In this document: positions 16,987 to 63,819 of the stretch, piece after piece
Numbering within the stretch: the first letter of the stretch is position 1
Layout of the letters: every line of letters starts with the position of its first letter
IMG/VR virus record: IMGVR_UViG_3300021960_000017
Strand: one strand, 5' to 3'
Length of the DNA: 64,000 nucleotides
Source of the DNA: a virus
Lineage: Duplodnaviria > Caudoviricetes
The notes under the pieces: generated by a model
What the model saw: only the letters and a program-made list of their open reading frames with translations
Databases searched by the model: none
What the model was told of the DNA's origin: nothing
Made by a program: the position numbers and the translations under genes

Positions 16987-19488
16987 ATGTTTATGGTAGC
17001 ACCAGTATGGGTAACTCCCCCAGGGACACTAGGCACTATTGTTGAAGAAGAGTTTTATCAGATTCAACTAGATGCTACAAATGCAGCAACATACGAGCAT
17101 TTGAGCGGTTTTTTACCAGACGGAATTCGCATTACAATCTATGGGCAATGCGAAGGTTTTCCAAAAAATATAGATTACATTCAGGGTGTGCCTAAATCAG
17201 TAACAACTGACACTGTAAATCAGTTCACTGTTAGAGCTACTAGTGAGGATGGTTTAGTGGCTGACCGTGTTTTTACTTTAACAGTAACTGGTCCAGACGC
17301 TCCCATTATTAATGCACTACCAGCCAGTAACCTAGGTAGTTATTTTGATGGTGACCAAATAAATGTTCAACTTACAGCAACAGACGCTGATACAGCAGAC
17401 ACCCAAACATGGAAACTAATATCAGGGGAATTACCTGACGGAGTTACACTTAGTACATCAGGACTTTTAAGTGGTTGGATCACTCCTATGCCAACAGAAA
17501 CTGGGGACAGTGGCTGGGACGAAAATAACTTTGACATTGGAAGTTTTGACTTTACTACAGTAAGCACCAATGTAACATACAAGTTTAAGGTGCAGGTTAG
17601 CGATAGCGGCGGTCTAACAAGTAGTAAAGAATACACATTATTTGTTGCCAGTAGAAACACACTAACTGCTGATAGCACGGTATTCACAGCAGACACTTAT
17701 GCACCTACAGCAAGTTCAACTAGTATTGAGAGTAAGATTACTGCTGATTTAAATGATAAAAGAACACCATATTTAAAAACACAACCAGCAGACTTTGGTG
17801 AAATTTTACATGACAATTATTACAGTTTCCAGTTTGTTGGTGTAGATTTTGATGCAGACATTTTAGAATATAGTATAACGACTGGTGCTGGATTAGGGTA
17901 CGACGCTGATGGAGTAGGATATGATGCAGCAGCATTAGATAGAGGTGATTTAGAATTGCCTCCTGGTATGACATTAGATCCTAACTCAGGCTGGCTTACA
18001 GGTTACATACCTTCGCAGGCAGCAACTAAAAAAGACTATAAATTTGGTATACAAGTCCGTAAAAAAAATTATCCAGAGTATATAAGTGACATAACATTTT
18101 TTACACTTACAATTATAGGAAATATAGCAGGAACAGTTACTTGGCCAGCAGCAGACCTAGGAACTATTGACACTGGAGCAATAAGCGAACTAGATGTTCG
18201 TGCAACTATTAGCAATAACAAGAGTGTAAAATACGTTCTTAAAACAACGTATTCCAATAATCTCCCACAAGGATTGAGATTGGAACAAAATGGACTAATT
18301 ACAGGCCGTGTAAGTTTTAACCATCTTATGTTTGATACTGGATCTACTAGTTTTGACAAAAACAGTACACAGGTATCTGAAACAACCTTCGAAAGAAAGC
18401 ATACATTTACTGTAAGAGTCTTTAGTGACGACCTAACAATAGATACTTTTCAAACATTTAATATTGTAATTAAACCAAGCAGTTTTAAACCTTATGAGGC
18501 ACTTTATGCTAAAGCACTAATAAGCAGTGGACAAAAAGACATTCATAGCATTCTTATTAACAACAGTGATGATATCGACCCTAACAGTGTTTACAGACTT
18601 GGCGATCTAAACTTTGGCATACAGCAAAATATTAGAGCACTTGTTACAAGCGGACTTAATCCTGCTCTGTTAACTGATTATGTTGAAGCCATGGCTTATA
18701 ATCATCACAATAATATTTTAAGATTTGGTGATATTAAAGTTGCTACAGCATATGAATCCGACGGAACTACAAAAAAGTATGAAGTTGTCTATGTTACACT
18801 AGTTGACAAGAGCCTGGGTATAGATCCTACAACTAAACTCCCCAGTGCACCCAAGCAACAAATCGATTTAGCAAAACAACAGAGTGTAACTGCTATGAGC
18901 GGATTTAATAGACGTCTTAGTGTAGACAGTTTGGGGCTAAGTGCTGACAGCGGCGGGTTTACTGGTGATGAACACAATTACAGATATGCCTATCCAAACA
19001 GTATAGAAAATATGCGATCACGCATTAAGGATGGCATAGGATATGCTGTACTAGAAAGATTAACTTTACCACAGTGGATGCAGGACAAACAAATAGACAC
19101 TGGCGGCAATATATTAGGTTATACACTTGCGGTGCCATTGGTATTTTGTAAACCTGGATCTGGCAAAAAAGTTGCATATCTTATTGGCCAACGAATTAGT
19201 AGTAGTAATATAGATCTAAAGAAAATAAGTTTTGAAGTTGATAGATTTATTCTTGATAATAATTTAAGTCAGTACTATAATAAGACTACAGGTGCATGGT
19301 CAAGTGCAGGACAAACTACATTTGATGTTGCTACAACTGAAATGACATTAGATGGAGATGGAACCAGGTTTTTTGCAAATGCAGACCAATATGCAGATCC
19401 AGACCAAAATGACCAATATATCAAGTTCCCCAAACGAGACATCTTCCGCTATGATCGTGCCAGTTCAGGATTTGAATACAATATTTAA
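16987..19488 (+). CDS. Virion structural protein with repeated putative Ig domains
   Basis: Repeats GELPDGVTLSTSGLLSG / LPPGMTLDPNSGWLTG / LPQGLRLEQNGLITG; late motif upstream. Confidence 0.7.
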   Translation: MFMVAPVWVTPPGTLGTIVEEEFYQIQLDATNAATYEHLSGFLPDGIRITIYGQCEGFPKNIDYIQGVPKSVTTDTVNQFTVRATSEDGLVADRVFTLTVTGPDAPIINALPASNLGSYFDGDQINVQLTATDADTADTQTWKLISGELPDGVTLSTSGLLSGWITPMPTETGDSGWDENNFDIGSFDFTTVSTNVTYKFKVQVSDSGGLTSSKEYTLFVASRNTLTADSTVFTADTYAPTASSTSIESKITADLNDKRTPYLKTQPADFGEILHDNYYSFQFVGVDFDADILEYSITTGAGLGYDADGVGYDAAALDRGDLELPPGMTLDPNSGWLTGYIPSQAATKKDYKFGIQVRKKNYPEYISDITFFTLTIIGNIAGTVTWPAADLGTIDTGAISELDVRATISNNKSVKYVLKTTYSNNLPQGLRLEQNGLITGRVSFNHLMFDTGSTSFDKNSTQVSETTFERKHTFTVRVFSDDLTIDTFQTFNIVIKPSSFKPYEALYAKALISSGQKDIHSILINNSDDIDPNSVYRLGDLNFGIQQNIRALVTSGLNPALLTDYVEAMAYNHHNNILRFGDIKVATAYESDGTTKKYEVVYVTLVDKSLGIDPTTKLPSAPKQQIDLAKQQSVTAMSGFNRRLSVDSLGLSADSGGFTGDEHNYRYAYPNSIENMRSRIKDGIGYAVLERLTLPQWMQDKQIDTGGNILGYTLAVPLVFCKPGSGKKVAYLIGQRISSSNIDLKKISFEVDRFILDNNLSQYYNKTTGAWSSAGQTTFDVATTEMTLDGDGTRFFANADQYADPDQNDQYIKFPKRDIFRYDRASSGFEYNI

Positions 19489-41971: not shown

Positions 41972-42583
41972 ATGCGAATTAAAGAAATTTTAGAAGCAGT
42001 AGCCCAGGGCACAATTCCCCCTCAAGCTCAAAGAAAAGTACCACAAGGCACTGGCGCAATGCCAGACGAGTTTGGCGCAAGAACTATGGGTCAGGGCACA
42101 GAAGTTAGTGCTAGTGGTAGACAAACTACCTATAACAAGGATGGTTCCAGTGTTAACACTAGTGCACAAGGTCAGTTTACTAGAGATAAACTTGGTCGTG
42201 TTACTCAGGTTCAAACTCCTCGTATAGCTGGTCTTCAACAAACAAACAAGTACGATCCGGGATCAATTGGCAATAAGCCTACTAGTCAGTCAACTAATTT
42301 TAATTATAAGTTGGGTAAAGCTGAAATAGACGCTACTATGCCTGGACCTGCTAGCCAGGCTGATATCAATAAAGCTACTGATATAAAAGTTAAGTATGGT
42401 AATGCTGGAATGCAAGCAACTAGAGGGCCTGATGGTAAACTTACTACTAGTACAAGTTATGATTTTGGGCCCAATAAAGTCTCTGCAAAAGACGATGGCA
42501 GTATTGACGTTCTTAATAAAAAAACAGGCCAAACTTATAAGACATCAACTGCCGCAATGGCGGCCGGTAAAGACGGAATTTAG
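41972..42583 (+). CDS. Hypothetical protein with MRIKEILE leader (possible internal virion protein)
   Basis: Gly/Thr/Gln-rich; leader shared with genes at 58.8-63.8 kb. Confidence 0.65.
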   Translation: MRIKEILEAVAQGTIPPQAQRKVPQGTGAMPDEFGARTMGQGTEVSASGRQTTYNKDGSSVNTSAQGQFTRDKLGRVTQVQTPRIAGLQQTNKYDPGSIGNKPTSQSTNFNYKLGKAEIDATMPGPASQADINKATDIKVKYGNAGMQATRGPDGKLTTSTSYDFGPNKVSAKDDGSIDVLNKKTGQTYKTSTAAMAAGKDGI

Positions 42584-53854: not shown

Positions 53855-56809
53855 ATGAAAATAAATGAAGCAGTTCAGCAGGTTGTAGCCATATATCCTG
53901 GCAGATTTCACCCTTTCCATAAGGGTCACGCCAGCGTCTACAACTATCTTCGCAACAAGTTCGACACTGTTTTCATTGCTACAAGTGATAAAGTAGACCC
54001 GCCACGCAGTCCTTTTAGTTTTGCTGAAAAGCGAGAAATGATGATTGCTGCTGGTATTCCGCCCAGTGCTATTGTCCAAACTAAAAATCCTTATCAAGCA
54101 CAAGAAATACTACAAGCATACGACCCAGCAACAACCGCAGTTGTGTTTGCTGTTAGCGAAAAGGATATGGCTGAAGATCCTAGATTTAGTTTTGCTAATA
54201 AGAAAGACGGGTCCCCAAGTTATTTCCAGCCTATGGCGCCAAACGCAAAACAAATGCAGTCCTTTGACAAGCATGGTTATATTACTACAGTGCCTACACT
54301 AGATTTTACTGTAGCAGGCGAACCCATGCGTAGTGCTACAGAGCTACGCCGCAACTTTGCAAATGCTGATCCCGAAACTCAAAAGACAATGGTCAATGAT
54401 TTGTATGGTGCGTATAATGATAGAGTTTACCAAATACTAAGCAGCAAACTTGCAGAAAGTTTAATGTTAGAAGACTATGCTAAACTAACCAATATTATAA
54501 ATCGTATCTGGCAACTAGACCTAGAACGTCCACTAAACGAAGAAGTTAAACGCAAAGTTCTAGCAAACATAAAGTTGGCTACAGAAGCCTGGAGCGAAAA
54601 GTACAAGCGTAGCATAAACTGCAACAATCCAAAAGGATTTAGCCAACGAGCTCATTGTCAGGGTCGCAAAAAGAACGAAGACATAAATGAAGCATTTGAT
54701 AGTCCTTATCCACTGGAATGGCAAGTCGAAGCACCCAATGAGTATAGTGCTTGGGCAAAAATTCCTTTTCAAGGTGGCGATTTTAGCTGGTTAAATGTGG
54801 ACTTTGATCAACCAACACAGGGCAATTTTGCTATTGAATTTACACTAGGCGGCAGAACCAAAGCATCAGGGAAAGGAGATGAGTTTAGGATTTTCGCTAC
54901 TGTTATAGAAGCAATTAAGCAGTGGTGGAAAAAAATAGATCAACGATTTGTTGATAGCATATACTTTAGTGCATCAAAAGATCCTAACGACAGCGAACGC
55001 AGACATGTATTATATTCAAGATTTGCTAAACAACTTGCTAGCCAGATTGGTTATACACTTGACGTAACAGATAAAGGCAGATCAGTATCATTTCTTTTAA
55101 CCGCACCAAAGAGAACGTATCAAGTTAAAGAAGAGAGCGGACCTGAGGTCACAATGTGGACTAACCCAGACTGGTTTGGTGCAGATGTAGACACTGACTA
55201 TTGGAATAAACAGCCTGTTAAAGTAATAGACATAGACAAGCTCGTCCCTTATGAACCAGAAGATAAGATGCAGGATCCCAAGTCTGCTGCTAATATGCAG
55301 GCTATTGCTAAAAGGATTCAAGCAGGCGAAAAGATAGATCCTATTGTTATCAGCAAACATGAAGGCAAATGGTTGATACTAGATGGGCATCATAGATACT
55401 TTGCTAGTAAATTAGCTGGTGCTAAAAAAGTAAGAGTGGTAGTAGTAGATCCTAAATATATCACATGGCGTGATGATGTGCCAGATGAGGATTATTATAA
55501 CGAAGTATTAGAGAACCAATACAGCGACCTGGAACTAGCAATCATGGAAGGCGGCCACAGTCTAGAAGAAGGTGTTGGGCGTGATGTTGCTAACTGGGCA
55601 AAGAGACAGTATAGAAAAGTAGTACCCTTTACACAAGCAGATACAAAAGACATGATTGACAACATTGCTAAAGAAAAGGGTATAGATCCTCGTGTTATGC
55701 AAGCAATGGCAGACAAAGAATCTTCTTATAATACTGGCGCAATTGGCGACAAGGGCAAGTCACATGGGTTATTCCAGTTACAAAATATTGCAGTAAAAGA
55801 CATCAATGACTGGTATAAAACAGATTATACTGACAGTGATAGAATGGATCCTGAGACCAATGCTCGTATGGCTGCTATGTATTTACAATTAGCAAAAGAC
55901 AAATACGGTGCTAAAAATGATGCGGAAGCTATCGCTATGTTTAATGGCGGACCCAAGGCCTTAACTAACCGAAATGCAATAAATTATGCCAGAGATGTTG
56001 TAAGCAGAATGAAACGCAACCAACAACGAGTGGTTAGAGAAGCAGGCGTAGGCAAGATTACCAAACAAAATGCAACCAAAGACGCTCCTATTGGCAGCGA
56101 GTTTGCTAATGTTAAAAAGTTAGGTTTGGGTAGCGGCAAGCCACCTGAACTACACAAAAAGGCTCGTAAGAACAGCGACCCAAATACATTATTCAATATT
56201 GGATTGGCGGAAGGCAAAGAAGGCAGTTACCTACTACAACTAGAGCGTGACGATGATCTGCTAGTATTACACATTACACATAGCAGAACAGGCAAGCGCA
56301 CCGAAGTGCGTGGCAAACCAGATTACGAGGGTGATGGATACGATCCCAATGATCAACTGCACCAATTGCTTGACAAGATTGGTAAGGCAGCAAGCATTAG
56401 CGACTTAATGAATGGCGAACTAGTAAGCATCAACCCTGTTCATCCACAGGGCCCAAGTGCTAAAGCACATGCTGAAAAAGCATTTGTAAGTGAGGACTTT
56501 GCTCAAGACCTAGAAGCAGAATTTCCTGGATTAGACTTAGATTTGTATACGACACGATCAGGTTACATATTGAGCAAGATTGTTCTTCCAGTAGGTGAAC
56601 GCAACGAAGGCACTGGCAGCAAAGTAATGCAACGAATTGTTGACATGGCTGATCAGGAAGGAAAACTTATTGCACTAACACCTGATACTGCATTTGGTGG
56701 CACAAAGAGTAGACTAATAAAGTTCTACAAGCGTTTTGGTTTTGTGCCCAACAAGGGACGCAACAAGACTTTTGATTTTAGAGAAATAATGGTTCGCTAT
56801 CCAAATTAA
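53855..56809 (+). CDS. Modular protein: HxGH nucleotidyltransferase + ParB/Srx-like + lytic transglycosylase (SLT) + GNAT
   Basis: YPGRFHPFHKGH; ILDGHHRY; AMADKESS...GLFQL...AMFNGG; GTGSKVM...RLIKFYKRFGF. Confidence 0.8.
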   Translation: MKINEAVQQVVAIYPGRFHPFHKGHASVYNYLRNKFDTVFIATSDKVDPPRSPFSFAEKREMMIAAGIPPSAIVQTKNPYQAQEILQAYDPATTAVVFAVSEKDMAEDPRFSFANKKDGSPSYFQPMAPNAKQMQSFDKHGYITTVPTLDFTVAGEPMRSATELRRNFANADPETQKTMVNDLYGAYNDRVYQILSSKLAESLMLEDYAKLTNIINRIWQLDLERPLNEEVKRKVLANIKLATEAWSEKYKRSINCNNPKGFSQRAHCQGRKKNEDINEAFDSPYPLEWQVEAPNEYSAWAKIPFQGGDFSWLNVDFDQPTQGNFAIEFTLGGRTKASGKGDEFRIFATVIEAIKQWWKKIDQRFVDSIYFSASKDPNDSERRHVLYSRFAKQLASQIGYTLDVTDKGRSVSFLLTAPKRTYQVKEESGPEVTMWTNPDWFGADVDTDYWNKQPVKVIDIDKLVPYEPEDKMQDPKSAANMQAIAKRIQAGEKIDPIVISKHEGKWLILDGHHRYFASKLAGAKKVRVVVVDPKYITWRDDVPDEDYYNEVLENQYSDLELAIMEGGHSLEEGVGRDVANWAKRQYRKVVPFTQADTKDMIDNIAKEKGIDPRVMQAMADKESSYNTGAIGDKGKSHGLFQLQNIAVKDINDWYKTDYTDSDRMDPETNARMAAMYLQLAKDKYGAKNDAEAIAMFNGGPKALTNRNAINYARDVVSRMKRNQQRVVREAGVGKITKQNATKDAPIGSEFANVKKLGLGSGKPPELHKKARKNSDPNTLFNIGLAEGKEGSYLLQLERDDDLLVLHITHSRTGKRTEVRGKPDYEGDGYDPNDQLHQLLDKIGKAASISDLMNGELVSINPVHPQGPSAKAHAEKAFVSEDFAQDLEAEFPGLDLDLYTTRSGYILSKIVLPVGERNEGTGSKVMQRIVDMADQEGKLIALTPDTAFGGTKSRLIKFYKRFGFVPNKGRNKTFDFREIMVRYPN

Positions 56810-56824
56810 AAAAAGAGACCATCA

Positions 56825-57823
56825 ATGAAAAAAACATTGTTAATTACATTTGGTTGTAGTTGGGTCTACGGCGTTGGCGTTAATTATGAAGAAGGCATGT
56901 CCCGGGAAGATTATCAGCTGAATGCGTGGAATCCTGAACTATGTGATGAATACAGTTTTAGAGGTTTAATTAAAAAAAATTTAAATATTGATACTAAGAA
57001 TTTTTCCTTAGGTGGCAGTAGCAATCAAATGCAATTTAGAGAGGCAAAACAATATTTTTTCTCTCAACAATTTATAGACCACAAAGATAGTTACGATAAC
57101 ATTATTGTTTTATGGGGTATTACCTCAACTGCCAGAAATGAGTTTTATTCTGTAGAGGACAAAACATTCCTAAACGTCCTTTACAATACATTTTTTGATA
57201 AATTTGACCCACTTGCTAAAAGCATAACGAAAAAAAATTATGACCTTATAAAACGTCCTAACTGGCCTTCGTGGGAAGATTATAATAATCTTAACCTAGA
57301 CAATATTGATTTAGAAACTTTAAAACAAATTGTTATATCTGAAAAATTACATTTACGAGATATGCAAAAATCTACTACTTTTAGACATCTGTTGGAACAC
57401 ATATTAGGAAAATTTTCCTGGGACGTGGATGCAGCAATATATGAACTTTCGCTAGAGATTAAACTTTTTAATAGTTTTTTCGAAAGTAGTAACATAAAAT
57501 TTTTATGGTATGATTTGTTTAATCACCATGATTATAAAAAAAGTTTTAAAAAATTTGTTGATCCAAGGGCAGAGTGGTTCGAACTAAAAAATTTTTTACA
57601 GTATGATAACAAATCAAGAGACATATTATCCTTAATATTAAAAAATAATAATAGTTTTGTAAAGGACATAGCATATCATTTATCTGAGTGGAAAGATGAC
57701 AATAAAAAAATAAATATGGGTGTAAAGAAAAAGTTATTAAATCCAATTAGTTTTCATCCTACTAAATTGGGGCACGTAGAGATAGCAAAAGTCTTACAAC
57801 CAGAAATAGAAAGGTTTGTTTGA
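56825..57823 (+). CDS. SGNH-like hypothetical protein
   Basis: FGCSWVYG, GGSSN, SFHPTKLGH; internal WPSWEDY module. Confidence 0.55.
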   Translation: MKKTLLITFGCSWVYGVGVNYEEGMSREDYQLNAWNPELCDEYSFRGLIKKNLNIDTKNFSLGGSSNQMQFREAKQYFFSQQFIDHKDSYDNIIVLWGITSTARNEFYSVEDKTFLNVLYNTFFDKFDPLAKSITKKNYDLIKRPNWPSWEDYNNLNLDNIDLETLKQIVISEKLHLRDMQKSTTFRHLLEHILGKFSWDVDAAIYELSLEIKLFNSFFESSNIKFLWYDLFNHHDYKKSFKKFVDPRAEWFELKNFLQYDNKSRDILSLILKNNNSFVKDIAYHLSEWKDDNKKINMGVKKKLLNPISFHPTKLGHVEIAKVLQPEIERFV

Positions 57824-58308
57824 TGTCCAAAGAAAAAGATGTAATAATACACTTTGTACGATTCTGCAAAGACCAACTAAAATTGCCTACAGTGCCCAAA
57901 ATTATTATTAAAGACAAAATTGACGACACAACATTTGGCCAATACAATACGCTAAAGAAAGACATTAGTATACGCACTGGCGACAGACATATTATGGATG
58001 TCTTGAGAACCCTAGCACACGAGCTAGTGCACCATGGCCAGAGACTAATTACACCAGACCTAGATGGAAGCGATGGAAGCGCACATGAAAATCAAGCCAA
58101 TGCTATCGCTGGAGTATTACTTCGTAAATATGGTGAGGACAATCCCAAACTCTACGAACATCTAGAAGAAAGAGCAAGCATAGGAGTACCATTAAGTAGT
58201 GGACTTACGGTAACTATTGCGCCACACAGAGCTCTGAAAGTTAAAAAATCCACACCGGGGAGGCATAGCTATGGAAACCCTAAACCTAAAAGAAAAAATT
58301 CTAAATGA
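57820..58308 (+). CDS. HExxH metallopeptidase-like protein
   Basis: TLAHELVHH ... HENQANA. Confidence 0.7.
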   Translation: MMSKEKDVIIHFVRFCKDQLKLPTVPKIIIKDKIDDTTFGQYNTLKKDISIRTGDRHIMDVLRTLAHELVHHGQRLITPDLDGSDGSAHENQANAIAGVLLRKYGEDNPKLYEHLEERASIGVPLSSGLTVTIAPHRALKVKKSTPGRHSYGNPKPKRKNSK

Positions 58309-58594: not shown

Positions 58595-58857
58595 TGAAAC
58601 TAGAGTGTGAGATATTAACAGAAGACTATAGTAACACCCCTGCTTACAGGGTATTTGTTAATGGCGAGCTAATGACTGAACGTGATTATGTTGTACCACC
58701 AGGCGAAGTAGGACATTACAATTTTATGTGTTACTTAACTTTGCCCGGTGGTGAAAATAAACTTGAAATTCAAGGAATAGGTCATAAGTTTAATATAGGC
58801 ACGATGTGGTTAGATGACAAACAAATAGCTCACAACCAAGGAGTATTTCAGATATGA
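58594..58857 (+). CDS. Hypothetical protein
   Basis: TAATG coupling. Confidence 0.65.
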   Translation: MKLECEILTEDYSNTPAYRVFVNGELMTERDYVVPPGEVGHYNFMCYLTLPGGENKLEIQGIGHKFNIGTMWLDDKQIAHNQGVFQI

Positions 58858-59060
58858 GAATAGACGAATTATTAGAAACAGCAAGCGCAGGTGCTACAAG
58901 CAGCGGCAATATTGCCACTGTGGCAAACCCTACAGTTGCTAGAGGCAAAGGCAAACCAAAAATGCAAAAACCTACTGATAATGCTCTGGATATGGATGCT
59001 AATTTGTTTAGTGGCGGTGCTATTAAGAGAAACACTTCAAAGCCATTAGGTGCTTTGTAG
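58854..59060 (+). CDS. Putative internal virion protein
   Basis: MRIDELLE leader. Confidence 0.6.
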   Translation: MRIDELLETASAGATSSGNIATVANPTVARGKGKPKMQKPTDNALDMDANLFSGGAIKRNTSKPLGAL

Positions 59061-59095
59061 CATAAATACATATATAATCTTTTAAAGGTACAACT

Positions 59096-60190
59096 ATGAG
59101 ATTCCGCGATTTTAAACCAGTTGTTAAAGAGAGCAAAACTCCAGAGCAAATTAAACTTGACTACTGTAGAGGGCTTATTACAAAAGAAGACGCGGTTTCT
59201 AGTCTTAAAAAGTTAGCGGAAGAAACTGACGCTGAAAAAGAATTTAATGCAGCATTTGATAAAGAATACAAAAAAGCATTTGGCGACAAAAAGCCAGCAC
59301 AATCTAAAAGAGAGCCTGAAAAATTTGGTGGTCTCGGAAGCCAGCAAGCATACGACGAATATAAACAAGATTTAGAAAAAAGACAAGCATCTATGCTTAT
59401 GCGCCGTGCCAAACCAGGCGACGCAATGGATCCTTGGGATCCAGATGATGGTAATGTATATAAAGACGAAACAACATGGCATTTAGATCCGAATTTTTCA
59501 GGATCACCAGGCGACTTTGAGCAACCTTGGATGAAAGTAAACACAAAATATACAGTAGGCCCAGATGGTCGTATAGATTTTGGGCAGCGTAAACCCTACA
59601 AAGACGACAGACCTCCTCAATACCAAGAATTATCAGATAAAGAATGGGCTGCATTTAAAAAATCTCAACTAAGAGTAGATTATCCAAATACTCCTAATGA
59701 CAAATTGCCATGGTACTTAAGAAAGGACGATCCAGATTTTGTACCATATATGAGCGGCAAAAAACCATCAGGTGGTGATGCAGATCCAGCTGGTATGACT
59801 GGTGCTACTGCCGCTGGTACTCCATCAAGGGGTGGTGATGCAGATCCAGGCGGTATGACTGGTGCTGATGCTGCTGGTACTCCAGCAAAACCATCAGGCA
59901 AAGGACCTAACTTACAAACTAATTTAGGTAGAAGTAGAACTGACAAATCAAATCAGTCTGACGATACTGGGCCAGATGATAAAGAAGCAGCCCGTATTGC
60001 AAAAAGATCAGAAAAAAGACAAGCAGCGAAACAAGATAGTTTAGACGACTTGAGTTTTGGCAACGCATTTAAAAGAGCCCGTAAAGCACATGGCGGCGCC
60101 GGCGGCATATTTACTTGGCGTGGTAGAAGATACCAAACAAATATAAAAGGCGAACGATATGTTAAGAATCCAACGCCGGTACAAATATAA
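59096..60190 (+). CDS. Putative internal virion protein with 20-aa tandem repeat
   Basis: MRFRDF leader; late motif upstream; C-terminal SFGNAFKRARK...FTWRGRRYQT. Confidence 0.65.
   Translation: MRFRDFKPVVKESKTPEQIKLDYCRGLITKEDAVSSLKKLAEETDAEKEFNAAFDKEYKKAFGDKKPAQSKREPEKFGGLGSQQAYDEYKQDLEKRQASMLMRRAKPGDAMDPWDPDDGNVYKDETTWHLDPNFSGSPGDFEQPWMKVNTKYTVGPDGRIDFGQRKPYKDDRPPQYQELSDKEWAAFKKSQLRVDYPNTPNDKLPWYLRKDDPDFVPYMSGKKPSGGDADPAGMTGATAAGTPSRGGDADPGGMTGADAAGTPAKPSGKGPNLQTNLGRSRTDKSNQSDDTGPDDKEAARIAKRSEKRQAAKQDSLDDLSFGNAFKRARKAHGGAGGIFTWRGRRYQTNIKGERYVKNPTPVQI
59771..59890 (+). repeat. Two in-frame 60-bp tandem repeat units
   Basis: GGDADPAGMTGATAAGTPSR / GGDADPGGMTGADAAGTPAK. Confidence 0.9.
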
Positions 60191-60202
60191 CTAGGAAAAA
60201 AC

Positions 60203-60748
60203 ATGAAAGACATACTTAACAAACTTGATAAAATCTTAAATGAAGGCATGCTAGGCGACATGGCACATGCCTGTGAAGCAGATCATGAAGTTCAGATGGC
60301 TCGTGCAGATCTTTTCAAGATTGCAAAGTATGCTATTAAACTACATGACATGATGAAAAATGTTAGCGAAATGGAAGGCATCCAGGGCTGGCAGCAAGCA
60401 AAGATTACAAAGGCTGCTGATTATTTAAGCAGCGTTTATCACAATTTAGACTATGAAATGAGTCCACTTAACCAAGCTCCAGAAGGTTCAGACACTGATG
60501 AAGTTATGGCACAGATGGCTTATGATCTTGCCGCTGATGATGAAATTGAAGAAGATAAAGTTCCATTGCCACCAAAGCGTCCAGAACCAAAGGCAGCGTC
60601 ATACACTGATGCACAGAGAAAATCAATGGACGATGCAGTAGACGTAATTACAAAGTCAGCAGAAGAAGAAGATGCAAAAAAGCGTAGAAACGAATCTACA
60701 GACTTAGGTAGAGCAACTAGAAAATTCAGCGATTGGGGAAAAAGATGA
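60203..60748 (+). CDS. Putative head-associated protein
   Basis: DHEVQMARADL...WQQAKITKAADYLSSVYH core; Glu-delimited segments. Confidence 0.65.
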   Translation: MKDILNKLDKILNEGMLGDMAHACEADHEVQMARADLFKIAKYAIKLHDMMKNVSEMEGIQGWQQAKITKAADYLSSVYHNLDYEMSPLNQAPEGSDTDEVMAQMAYDLAADDEIEEDKVPLPPKRPEPKAASYTDAQRKSMDDAVDVITKSAEEEDAKKRRNESTDLGRATRKFSDWGKR

Positions 60749-61263
60749 ACGACTTTACAAGCCTAGTTAAAAAACTAAACGAGATTAGTGACAGAGCAGA
60801 AGTTACTACAATTAATGAAAGTGTAGAACAGCCTGTAGCACGAACATCTAGTGATGTGAAGTCAACAGCAAAAATCCTACGCAAGTTTAGTGAAATTGAA
60901 TCTGAAATCGTTGCTGAAGAAGCTCAAGCAAAAGAAGATGTTACTAGCGATATCAGCAATCGTTTTAGAGAGTTTATGAAAAGCGAAGTTGGTCAGGGTA
61001 ATGACCTTGAATCAGTAAACACTGCTGTTCACGAAGCCCACACAACTGCAACTATTTTATCAGGAAGCATAGGTGTACTAGCTGACAGTTTAAAGCGTCA
61101 ACTAGAAGCTACAAAAGAAGGTGGCGTATTACAACGCATGGTAGAACGTGAAGGTGGCGATACAACTCACATTGCAAAGGCATACGAAGCTCTTAAATTA
61201 GCCGCAGAGGCTCTTGACGCAGCACATATGTATGCAGTAAAATTAGACGACCAAAAGAAGTAG
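60745..61263 (+). CDS. Putative head-associated/scaffold-like protein
   Basis: Helical, Glu-rich; KKLNE leader. Confidence 0.6.
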   Translation: MNDFTSLVKKLNEISDRAEVTTINESVEQPVARTSSDVKSTAKILRKFSEIESEIVAEEAQAKEDVTSDISNRFREFMKSEVGQGNDLESVNTAVHEAHTTATILSGSIGVLADSLKRQLEATKEGGVLQRMVEREGGDTTHIAKAYEALKLAAEALDAAHMYAVKLDDQKK

Positions 61264-61273
61264 AGAAAAAATT

Positions 61274-61927
61274 ATGAGAGCATTTGAGTTTACCAACGAA
61301 CAAACAAAAGTTGCCCCGTTAACCAGAGTTGCACCACTCACTAGAGTTGCTCCTGGTACCCGTGTTACAGGAAGTGAACCTAGTAGATGGGCAAAAAGTA
61401 TGGGTAGCGATGCTGCTGCTAATGAAAAGAAACGAGCAGAAATATTAGCTCGTATGGAACGAGAACGCCCTGATTTCGAAAGAGCTGTACAAGGTCTGTC
61501 TGATACAGAATTAGCTGCTGCCAGAGAAAAGTATGCACAAAGTTTAGGACTAAGAAATGCACAGGCTATGATAAACCTAGCAACAGGTTATGAAGCAGGC
61601 ACAGGACAAATTAATCCAGATTACGACAAAGAACTACAAGCAAACAAAGCAGCCAATACTCAGGATATGACACAATATGGTGCTGCCAGAAGAGGTAACG
61701 CAAGTGTGCAATCTCCTTTTATAAGTTCACAACCTAAAAAGGCTGAGCCTGCACCTACACCAGCAGCACCTACACCTGCTCCGAAAGCAGATGCAGATGA
61801 TAACCAAGGCCAATCTCAGGTTGATGCTGTTGCTAAACAAGGACGTTCACAAGTTAATGCTGTTGCCAAATCAGGCATGGATGCTGTAAATGCATTAATG
61901 AGGAACGCTGGTTTAAGAGTAAGATAA
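61274..61927 (+). CDS. Putative internal virion protein
   Basis: MRAFEF leader; VAPLTR x2 / VAPGTR micro-repeat. Confidence 0.6.
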   Translation: MRAFEFTNEQTKVAPLTRVAPLTRVAPGTRVTGSEPSRWAKSMGSDAAANEKKRAEILARMERERPDFERAVQGLSDTELAAAREKYAQSLGLRNAQAMINLATGYEAGTGQINPDYDKELQANKAANTQDMTQYGAARRGNASVQSPFISSQPKKAEPAPTPAAPTPAPKADADDNQGQSQVDAVAKQGRSQVNAVAKSGMDAVNALMRNAGLRVR

Positions 61928-62118
61928 TGCGAGCAAAAGAGTTTCAACCTAAAGCATTGACTGAAGCAGAATTTGACGAAGCAGCAGGTGAAAAGGATGC
62001 TTGCTATCGTAAAGTTAAAGCTCGTTACAAAGTATGGCCCAGTGCATATGCTAGTGGTGCTCTAGTAAAGTGTCGCAAAGTGGGTGCTGCCAACTGGGGA
62101 AACAAGAGTAAAAAGTAA
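61927..62118 (+). CDS. Small basic Cys-containing protein
   Basis: MRAKEF leader; DACYRKVKARYKVWPSAYASGALVKCRK. Confidence 0.7.
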   Translation: MRAKEFQPKALTEAEFDEAAGEKDACYRKVKARYKVWPSAYASGALVKCRKVGAANWGNKSKK

Positions 62119-62372
62119 TGCTTATTACAGAAGTAGTACAAGAGGATCTACGAAAATGGTTCAAAGAGAAATGGGTTCGCTTTGGTCCTGACGGTAAGAT
62201 ACGTGGAGATTGTGCTAGAGGTAGTGAAAGCGAAGGTAAGCCTAAATGTTTGCCACAAAAGAAAGCACACGCATTAGGTAAAAAAGGGCGCAAGACGGCA
62301 GCAAGTCGTAAACGCAGGGAAGATCCCGATAAAAACAGACGCGGCAAAGCAAAAAACGTCGCTACAAAGTAG
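62118..62372 (+). CDS. Small basic Cys-containing protein
   Basis: MLITE leader; LRKWFKEKWV...KPKCLP. Confidence 0.7.
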   Translation: MLITEVVQEDLRKWFKEKWVRFGPDGKIRGDCARGSESEGKPKCLPQKKAHALGKKGRKTAASRKRREDPDKNRRGKAKNVATK

Positions 62373-62381
62373 AAATAAACT

Positions 62382-63287
62382 ATGCTATTTTTAAATTACG
62401 CTGAGTTTTATTTAACCAACGTATGTAATTTGTCATGTCCAGGCTGTAACAGGTTTAACAGTTTTAATTTTAAAGGGCATCAACGTTGGTCAGATTTAAA
62501 AGACACTTATACTAAATGGGCTAAAGTTTTACACCTAGGCAATTTTGGGATTTTGGGCGGAGAACCATTACTAAATCCTAATTTTATGGATTGGTTAATT
62601 GGAACAACTGACTTATGGCCCAAATCAACATGTAGGTTAACTACAAATGGTTTTAGACTTAATAAAGTCAAAGGCTTGTACGATGTATTAAAAAGTCGTC
62701 CTAAAATTCAAATGTCAGTTGGTATTCATAATAAAATGCACAAGCGGGAAATAATGAATATTTTAGAAGAATTCCTTGCTGGGCCGCTTAAAATAGAACA
62801 CGATAATTCTAATAAATATCAGCAAAAGTTGTATATCACCGATTCTAATGATGTAAAAGTTAGAGTAGAATATAATTGGTGGTTTCATCAGGGAGCAATC
62901 ATTCCTAACGATCAAGGAAAGTTAACTTTGCATAACAGTGATCCAGATAAAGCGCATAGTATTTGCCACAGTTCAGAATGTCATCATTTTGCATATGGCA
63001 AATTATACAAATGCGGCGCCAGTGCGCTGTTTTCAGAGTTTGACGAACAGATAGGTTTAGAACTAGATTCTAAAGATAGAGAATTAATTAATAATGTAAA
63101 TTCATTATCAGTGGATGACGATTTAGAAACACAAAAACTGTTTATAGAAAATATAAAAAACCCTATACCACAATGTAAATTTTGTCCTGAAGTTTATATT
63201 GGAGATCAAATTTTTGCCTTAAAGAAAAAGGATATATTGGCCCAGCAACGAGAGAGTACAAATGAGATTTTCCGAGTTAACACATAA
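62382..63287 (+). CDS. Radical SAM protein
   Basis: CNLSCPGC, LGGEPLL, TTNG, C-terminal CHS..C..C / CKFC. Confidence 0.88.
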   Translation: MLFLNYAEFYLTNVCNLSCPGCNRFNSFNFKGHQRWSDLKDTYTKWAKVLHLGNFGILGGEPLLNPNFMDWLIGTTDLWPKSTCRLTTNGFRLNKVKGLYDVLKSRPKIQMSVGIHNKMHKREIMNILEEFLAGPLKIEHDNSNKYQQKLYITDSNDVKVRVEYNWWFHQGAIIPNDQGKLTLHNSDPDKAHSICHSSECHHFAYGKLYKCGASALFSEFDEQIGLELDSKDRELINNVNSLSVDDDLETQKLFIENIKNPIPQCKFCPEVYIGDQIFALKKKDILAQQRESTNEIFRVNT

Positions 63288-63819
63288 ACCTACACCAGTA
63301 GAATTAGCAATTAAAGAACATATTGCAAGAGGCGTTCCTTTTAGCGAATGCATGTTTCGTCCAGGTAGTAAAGCGTTTACAGAGTTCTATAACACCCTAA
63401 GAGAAATGCGTGATACTCTAGAGTTAGATTGGCAGGATCAGGAACTACTTGATACAGATATTGGCGAATGTGTTGTTATTGAAGGTGAACGTGTTCCTCT
63501 TGATGTTCCTATTGAAGAAGAAGTTGAACTTGATGAAGCAGAATATCAGGGCAAGCAAGTTAAACTTAATTCTCCAAAGCGTGGCGGAAGCAAAAAGTTC
63601 TATGTATATGTAAAGAACCCAAAGACTGATCGTGTTAAAAAAATTAGTTGGGGTGACACAACGGGCCTAAGTGTAAAGGCCAAAAACCGCGGCGCAGTTC
63701 GTAGTTTTGTTGCACGACATAAATGTATGCAAGCCAATGACAAACTTACTGCAAGATACTGGAGTTGCCGCACACCACGCTATAAAGCACTTGGTGTTAA
63801 AGGCGGAGCTTGGTGGTGA
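63262..63819 (+). CDS. Putative internal virion protein with basic C-terminal domain
   Basis: MRFSEL leader; KKFYVYVKNP...ARHKC...ARYWSC. Confidence 0.7.
   Translation: MRFSELTHKPTPVELAIKEHIARGVPFSECMFRPGSKAFTEFYNTLREMRDTLELDWQDQELLDTDIGECVVIEGERVPLDVPIEEEVELDEAEYQGKQVKLNSPKRGGSKKFYVYVKNPKTDRVKKISWGDTTGLSVKAKNRGAVRSFVARHKCMQANDKLTARYWSCRTPRYKALGVKGGAWW

Follow-up and report, generated by a model that had tools for sequence, protein, structure and literature searches.

We analysed a 64,000-nucleotide (nt) stretch, hereafter the window, of the virus record IMGVR_UViG_3300021960_000017 (Duplodnaviria; Caudoviricetes) for a short leader of the form M-[RK]-x-x-[ED]-[FLI], which begins the products of several small genes clustered between positions 58854 and 63819. 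The original prediction had listed eight such N-termini, likened them to the targeting sequences of the internal head proteins of bacteriophage T4 and proposed that a modular system of leader and cargo loads many proteins into the head. All eight N-termini are encoded where it had placed them.

A portable leader at protein N-termini

Six-frame translation of the window yields the pattern seven times in total, and six of these occurrences coincide with the first Met of open reading frames (ORFs) of 63–364 residues, starting at 41972, 58854, 59096, 61274, 61927 and 63262. Five of the six leader genes are packed within 5 kb, the sixth (41972) lying outside the cluster. The genes are listed below with the score (in bits) of each N-terminus against a leader profile.

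58854..59060, + strand: gene for a 68-residue basic peptide; leader MRIDELLE, then the conserved body AGATSxGNIA ... KPKMQKPTDNALD; score 18.8
59096..60190, + strand: gene for a 364-residue charged, low-complexity protein; leader MRFRDF, with V-K-E at residues 10–12; score 15.3
61274..61927, + strand: gene for a 217-residue low-complexity protein; leader MRAFEF; score 19.6
61927..62118, + strand: gene for a 63-residue DUF5872-like module (phrog_727, E = 3.9e-25); leader MRAKEF, with L-T-E at residues 11–13; score 16.8
63262..63819, + strand: gene for a 185-residue two-domain protein; leader MRFSEL; score 11.0
41972..42583, + strand: gene for a 203-residue Gly/Gln/Thr-rich protein, outside the cluster; leader MRIKEILE; score 21.8, the best of all

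Residue frequencies at each position in the remaining genes lead one to expect about one pattern match per 100 genes by chance, and the binomial probability of at least six matches is 4.5e-4. Pattern starts are present in four of the eight called genes at 58.2–63.9 kb versus one of 91 elsewhere in the window (Fisher p = 9e-5); the cluster count becomes five of ten once the gene at 61927, missed by the crude gene caller, is added. In the profile scan the six genes score 11–22 bits, with a window median of -9 and a best score of 5.5 for any gene outside the two leader-gene neighbourhoods. The expectation that the leader is commoner than chance is borne out by this enrichment and by its restriction to N-termini, and so is the claim that the cargoes are otherwise unrelated, as the best pairwise match among the six proteins beyond residue 12 has E = 0.098. 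The window therefore shares a hallmark of the T4 tag, in that proteins with nothing else in common carry a short sequence at their very N-terminus. The leader is a genuine element which is confined to protein N-termini and portable between unrelated cargoes.

We compared 80 viral-contig loci, found by searching with the family of the 68-residue protein, to a control set of 80 loci from similar phages. In the related loci 226 of 1,581 genes (14.3%) start with the pattern, every one of them on the cluster strand, as compared to 3.1% in the control loci. The bias extends to positions that played no part in selecting the leaders: position 3 is I, A, L or F in 82% and position 7 hydrophobic in 64% of them, and Glu is frequent at position 8 or 9. 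The leader contains two tandem hydrophobic-x-Glu motifs. A hydrophobic-x-Glu with its Glu at residues 8–10 is present in 66% of leader proteins versus 10% of the others, a difference which partly follows from the selection at position 6. Synonymous codons at the selected leader positions match the usage in the protein bodies (AGA, CGT and CGA for Arg, and several Leu and Ile codons), which means that selection acts on the peptide and not on an RNA site; an RNA-level or translational signal was rejected on this ground.

Orthologues retain the leader while the remainder of the protein drifts. The same cluster is present in the syntenic relatives L081–L084, L086, L102, L141 and L143, usually with clpA upstream and a DNA polymerase gene downstream, and leader starts in these relatives include MRFNEF, MRFTEI, MRFSEI, MRAKEF, MRLFEF and MRITDL. 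The orthologue of the 59096 protein in L081 and L084 begins MRFNEF, and the sole homologue found for the 61274 protein begins MRAKEF. In the family of the 41972 protein four orthologues agree almost completely over the N-terminal 40 residues, whereas the C-terminal half diverges. A complete 372-kb relative (G002) has about 25 ORFs beginning with the leader, scattered over the genome. Between 240 and 321 kb of this genome, about 25 starts of the form M[KR]I.E[IL][IL].E occur in several clusters and on both strands, far from the clpA-linked cluster.

The family of the 68-residue peptide comprises 78 homologues, in each of which the leader ends in Glu directly before the conserved body. Its invariant core (AGATSxGNIA, then KPKMQKPTDNALD, with the end IKR) is unannotated and has no match in the cultured-phage collection; a tblastn search of the phage collection gave no match for the 364-residue protein either, and a megablast search with the cluster found no close relative of the window among cultured phages. 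The viral contigs likewise had no exact match to a 54-nt word taken from the window. The peptide may be an abundant internal head peptide. The proteins encoded at 59096–60190 and 61274–61927 are of low complexity with short tandem peptide repeats (GGDADPxGMTGAxAAGTP twice; VAPLTR units) and look intrinsically disordered.

An AlphaFold2 model of the 63262 protein has a moderate overall predicted local distance difference test (pLDDT) score of 73. Residues 1–10 (mean pLDDT 55) are placed outside the fold, which begins at residue 12, and a disordered linker at residues 82–90, followed by L-D-E, is predicted between the two domains. A Foldseek search with the model gave no match in the PDB at E ≤ 0.001. 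For most of the cargoes neither Pfam nor PHROGs suggested a function. When ten leader proteins of the 372-kb relative were compared to Pfam, only PG_binding_1 and DUF5591 were above the cut-offs, along with two weak sub-threshold hits. A count of cargo families by single-linkage clustering of the leader proteins collapsed into one component owing to domain shuffling.

Cargo modules, polyproteins and neighbouring genes

The window belongs to a large, uncultured, T4-like marine phage; its genes run in one direction and include those for a T4-type clamp loader, dnaJ and clpA. The remaining features in and around the cluster are as follows.

53855..56809, + strand: gene for a 984-residue polyvalent polyprotein with cytidylyltransferase-like, ParB-like and SLT domains and a PLxRFG-type C-terminus; borderline leader MKINEA, score 8.5
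57823..58308, + strand: gene for a leaderless 161-residue HExxH module, its start codon overlapping the stop codon of an inserted SGNH-like gene (TGATG)
59061..59068, + strand: CATAAATA, a putative T4-type late promoter core, 35 nt upstream of the gene at 59096
60203..60748, + strand: gene for a 181-residue protein with a longer variant leader, MKDILNKLDKILNE, recognized by family comparison
60745..61263, + strand: gene for a 172-residue protein with a possible variant leader, MNDFTSLVKKLNE, a weaker case; its ATG overlaps the preceding stop codon
62118..62372, + strand: gene for an 84-residue module, the split-off second half of the gene at 61927; its start MLITEV is not an independent leader, score 0.8
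62382..63287, + strand: radical-SAM gene (PF04055) inserted in the cluster, its last 26 nt also forming the beginning of the 63262 gene

The bodies of the proteins encoded at 57823, 58854, 60203, 61927, 62118 and 63262 recur elsewhere as internal modules of larger proteins, in varying orders. For the 68-residue module we collected 30 N-terminal and 22 internal contexts, and the preceding residue is Glu in 52 of 52. Most of these contexts have I, L, V or M two residues before the Glu, which is the motif of the T4 prohead protease gp21. Among the 22 polyproteins with an internal copy, 21 start with the leader or a close variant of it. In phage Melnitz the body of the 63262 protein forms the C-terminus of a 650-residue polyprotein starting MKKFSEIIE. 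Similarly, the cyanophage S-CREM2 protein gp160 has an internal joint (..TEISE before GKKDACY) which is almost the same as the leader that begins the orthologue in L081 (MRFTEIIE before GKKDACY). The modular arrangement of leader and cargo is thus well supported by the presence of the same modules inside leader-headed polyproteins and by the constant Glu before the 68-residue module. In podophages, copies without a leader were found for the C-terminal domain of the 63262 protein in both of the phages checked (HTVC026P and CRP-2) and for the DUF5872-like domain in one of the two (CRP-2).

Close relatives of the 60203 protein read MKDILDKLDNIINE, and distant homologues carry the canonical leader MREKDLKE followed by the same body (GLG..DHE), which shows that the long N-terminus of the 60203 protein is a variant at the same position. 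When this module is internal, its first ~14 residues are missing. Orthologues of the 60745 protein begin MSDFASLVAKLNE and MNNSFSDLVRRLNE.

Two of the eight N-termini in the original prediction fared less well. The start of the 53855 polyprotein is borderline at 8.5 bits, being off-pattern at position 6, although its orthologues begin MRIHEA or MKIYEA. MLITEV (62118) is not a leader; compared to the syntenic contig L081, the window has a 17-nt insertion here, which creates TAATG and splits one 130-residue gene into ORFs of 63 and 84 residues. This may be either a real functional split or an assembly error. The SGNH-like gene (56825–57823) sits exactly on a module boundary of the polyprotein, leaving the downstream HExxH module as a separate ORF; in L081 and L082 the HExxH module is the C-terminus of a polyprotein of 1,526 or 996 residues.

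These modules are reminiscent of the polyvalent proteins of Iyer et al. 2017 (PMC5512222). The likeness lies in the 984-residue neighbour, which combines ParB-like, transglycosylase and other small domains, and in the small genes of the window, which are stand-alone copies of modules fused in other phages. The recombination of small effector domains between proteins, by which polyvalent proteins are recognized, applies to the cargo and not to the leader. In the passages searched, the article differs in describing neither a T4-type N-terminal tag nor hydrophobic-x-Glu joints, and it invokes autoprocessing by metallopeptidase domains instead.

Likeness to the T4 capsid targeting sequence and virion evidence

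In T4 the N-terminal tag is MKTYQEFIAE (PMC8442874), in which residues 4 and 7 (hydrophobic or aromatic) are needed for targeting and residues 8 (L/I) and 10 (Glu) for processing, with gp21 cutting after L/I-x-E (PMC9026906). With a shift of one residue the same rule describes the marine leaders, which have hydrophobic residues at positions 3 and 6/7 and Glu at position 8 or 9. A profile of nine positions was derived from 196 distinct leaders of marine origin and used to score the 1,580 ATG-started ORFs of at least 40 residues in T4, with room for one additional residue behind position 2. Among these starts the internal protein genes ipI, ipIII and ipII rank 3rd, 4th and 5th, gp24 ranks 12th and Alt ranks 17th. 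The resemblance to the T4 internal-protein tag noted in the original prediction is therefore recovered by a profile made from marine sequences only. The second rank is taken by gp61.1 (MKTFKEFIKE, 54 residues, 18966–19130), an uncharacterised protein, which from its sequence might be an unrecognised tagged protein. The start of rI.-1 (MKFSDF, 58819–59205) ranks 6th with the marine profile.

Intermediate forms were also found. Cyanophage cytidylyltransferases start MKSFFQFLSE, MKKFSAFLKE, MKSFSKFFSE, MKKFSAFLTE and MKNFSSFLTE; other such starts are MKKFSELTSE and MKKFSEIIE in Melnitz, MKTLKELLRK in HTVC008M and MRFSELTHK in the window. These forms link the T4 tag to the window leader. The cytidylyltransferase of T4-like cyanophages has matches in 527 phage records, and a T4-type tag was present in five of the five cyanophages sampled.

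The window leader shares with the tag of T4 IPI, IPII and IPIII and with the Alt and gp24 propeptides the length of about ten residues at the N-terminus, the Met-Lys/Arg start, the unrelated cargo, the hydrophobic residues three apart followed by hydrophobic-x-Glu (in full in two of the six window leaders), and the occurrence in phages with a gp21-type protease. It differs in being one residue shorter than MKTYQEFIAE and in favouring Arg at position 2. In contrast to T4, the window lineage uses its leader on far more genes (the window has at least six, the 372-kb relative about 25) and also at the head of multi-module polyproteins with internal cleavage-type joints. The phiKZ-like giant phages likewise trim many head-internal proteins after Glu by a distant gp21 homologue (PMC9026906), but they belong to an unrelated lineage, cleave after S/A-x-E and have no known short shared N-terminal tag. 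A gp21-type protease (Peptidase_S77) was above the curated cut-off in all seven genomes and contigs searched, namely T4, Melnitz, HTVC008M, S-CREM2 and three large contigs with leader clusters.

The virion proteome of the T4-like cyanophage S-CREM2 contains 52 proteins (PMC10665884). We derived the rule M..h..hh.E (h, hydrophobic) from the T4 mutational work and applied it to the 199 called ORFs of this phage. Five ORFs match, four of which are in the virion proteome; adding a kinase started by GTG makes it five of six (Fisher p = 0.005, for a small sample). The original prediction had staked itself on the proteins being in virions, and in this cultured relative most of the proteins fitting the rule are. 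The five detected proteins (ORFs 6, 13, 14, 136 and 154 of OR473000) have MK.F..FL.E starts, which agree with the T4 tag position by position. According to the S-CREM2 authors, the six non-structural virion proteins include a SAM (S-adenosylmethionine) hydrolase, an APH/ChoK-like kinase and an NMNAT-like cytidylyltransferase (PMC10665884), and these three enzymes are among the five tagged proteins.

Two further virion-detected proteins of S-CREM2 connect it to the window. The C-terminal module of gp160 is 65% identical to the window module at 61927 (E = 2e-20) and its residues 141–211 are homologous to the module at 62118 (E = 2e-4), while gp15 starts with MNFSEF, the form seen in the window. 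NMNAT-like proteins have been reported in several other cyanophage virions, including the NMNAT of S-SCSM1 (PMC9602691). The non-structural virion proteins of S-CREM2 and S-SCSM1 come from relatives in the Kyanoviridae; three S-CREM2 enzymes have a ten-residue T4-like start, and gp160 has two modules in common with window genes. These cyanophage starts differ from the nine-residue window form in having the T4 length, and the S-CREM2 paper proposes no targeting signal.

Proposed mechanism, alternatives and significance

We propose, with a probability of about 75%, that the leader M-[RK]-h-x-[ED]-[FLI]-h-(x)-E corresponds in this lineage to the T4 capsid targeting sequence and that it works by the same mechanism as in T4. 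By analogy with T4, the products of the six small genes are most likely carried inside the capsid and delivered to the host along with the DNA. At a late stage of infection, the short amphipathic leader would attach the tagged proteins to the scaffolding core of the prohead during its assembly. A gp21-type prohead protease would then cut after the Glu of hydrophobic-x-Glu, removing the leader and separating the modules of polyproteins, and the mature cargo would stay in the head and enter the host with the DNA.

Several observations weigh against this proposal. The highest rank in the T4 scan belongs to UvsY (MRLEDLQEEL, 114914–115327, NC_000866), which is not a head protein and hence a false positive, so the motif alone is insufficient. 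Just two of the six window leaders, MRIDELLE and MRIKEILE, contain a complete hydrophobic-x-Glu that ends at residue 8, the motif lying at residues 3–5 or 10–14 in the remaining four, and the HExxH module at 57823 has no leader at all. The S-CREM2 sample is small, and the authors of that study noted that non-structural virion proteins may be purification carry-over (PMC10665884). The protease search covered relatives and controls. Replication genes surround the cluster, and the signs of late promoters in it are weak. In the related loci ATAAATA occurs within 70 nt upstream of 23% of leader genes versus 12% of other genes; in the cluster the exact TATAAATA motif is absent and only CATAAATA is present. 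A scan of 50–64 kb for sigma-70 promoters and terminators gave background levels, and a published pelagiphage transcriptome proved to concern podophages only. For the window phage, we infer core binding, cleavage, late expression and injection by analogy with T4. The capsid-loading interpretation of the original prediction is supported by the T4 profile ranks, the modularity and the S-CREM2 virions, within the limits that MLITE is no leader and that the motif does not suffice by itself.

The pattern is short and was defined after looking at the sequence, which invites the view that the N-termini resemble each other by chance. This view is refuted by the counts, since the pattern is confined to N-termini, clustered and kept in orthologues, and the positions unused in its selection are biased too. 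It also seems improbable that the shared N-terminus serves expression or turnover, as a translation start, an RNA repressor site or a degron for the phage ClpA encoded ~9 kb upstream. The codons after the ATG are AT-rich, and both in the window and in several relatives the cluster is preceded by dnaJ and clpA; however, the choice of synonymous codons at the conserved positions is that of the protein bodies, a tag of this kind has been shown experimentally to direct proteins to the capsid in T4, and tagged proteins are present in S-CREM2 virions. The scattering of the ~25 leader genes of the 372-kb relative far from clpA, together with the use of the same kind of tag for capsid targeting in T4, makes a link to clpA unlikely.

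The position of the radical-SAM gene (62382–63287; PF04055) between two leader genes raises the possibility that the leader is a recognition sequence for this enzyme, as in ribosomally synthesized and post-translationally modified peptides (RiPPs), and homologues of the gene adjoin leader genes in L124 and L132. Such a role is very hard to reconcile with the syntenic relatives L081–L084, which have the leader genes and no radical-SAM gene at this spot. A homologue is present in only two of the 80 leader loci, so the consistent co-occurrence of tag and maturase expected of a RiPP-type leader is lacking. The surroundings in 80 loci of homologues are of glycosyltransferase, SGNH and SPASM genes, with no leader-pattern gene in 54 of the 80. 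In T4 a similar tag serves for targeting, and the published pathway includes no radical-SAM enzyme. The radical-SAM gene is an unlinked insertion outside the leader system. A more serious, though still unlikely, alternative is that the element is only a protease-cleavable hydrophobic-x-Glu linker or propeptide and that the proteins are packaged through some other property, for instance by binding DNA or another packaged protein. Internal joints do resemble the leader minus its Met-Arg (..TEISE versus MRFTEIIE before GKKDACY, and KALEQIEE before TATAG), and the tandem hydrophobic-x-Glu motifs lie inside the leader itself. Yet the conserved Met-[RK] and hydrophobic positions 3 and 6 match the T4 residues needed for targeting and not those for cleavage (PMC9026906), and the full leader is kept at the very N-terminus of nearly every polyprotein. 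The element probably both addresses and cuts and, with a lower probability, cuts only.

The capsid-targeting proposal may have a wider form, the odds for which we consider evenly balanced. A single portable element for address and cutting, made of the N-terminal tag and the hydrophobic-x-Glu joints, would be used throughout the T4 superfamily, in T4, cyanophages, Melnitz, HTVC008M and marine jumbo phages, with dozens of effector modules moving between stand-alone genes and polyproteins as a large and fast-evolving injected kit. It would explain the non-structural enzymes of cyanophage virions, and the 68-residue peptide would be a new abundant internal head protein. Wide use of the tag by T4-like phages appears in the T4 literature only as a speculation (PMC9026906). 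Among searchable open-access papers we found none discussing capsid targeting in the context of cyanophages, the sole co-mention being a cyanophage in a reference list, and a broader literature search gave no paper linking the tag to marine, pelagiphage or jumbo phages. The mechanism is that of T4 and is known; the proposed example in this lineage would be new.

Should the tag have the same function as in T4, the proteins that marine phages deliver to the host with their DNA could be predicted from a simple sequence rule. The phages concerned are abundant in the sea and are relatives of those infecting SAR11, OM43 and cyanobacteria. The injected proteins would then be the first weapons of these phages against host defences and their first tools for taking over the cell, and the presence of cytidylyltransferase, SAM hydrolase and kinase in cyanophage virion proteomes would be explained. 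The leader would also be a short tag by which selected proteins could be loaded into such capsids.

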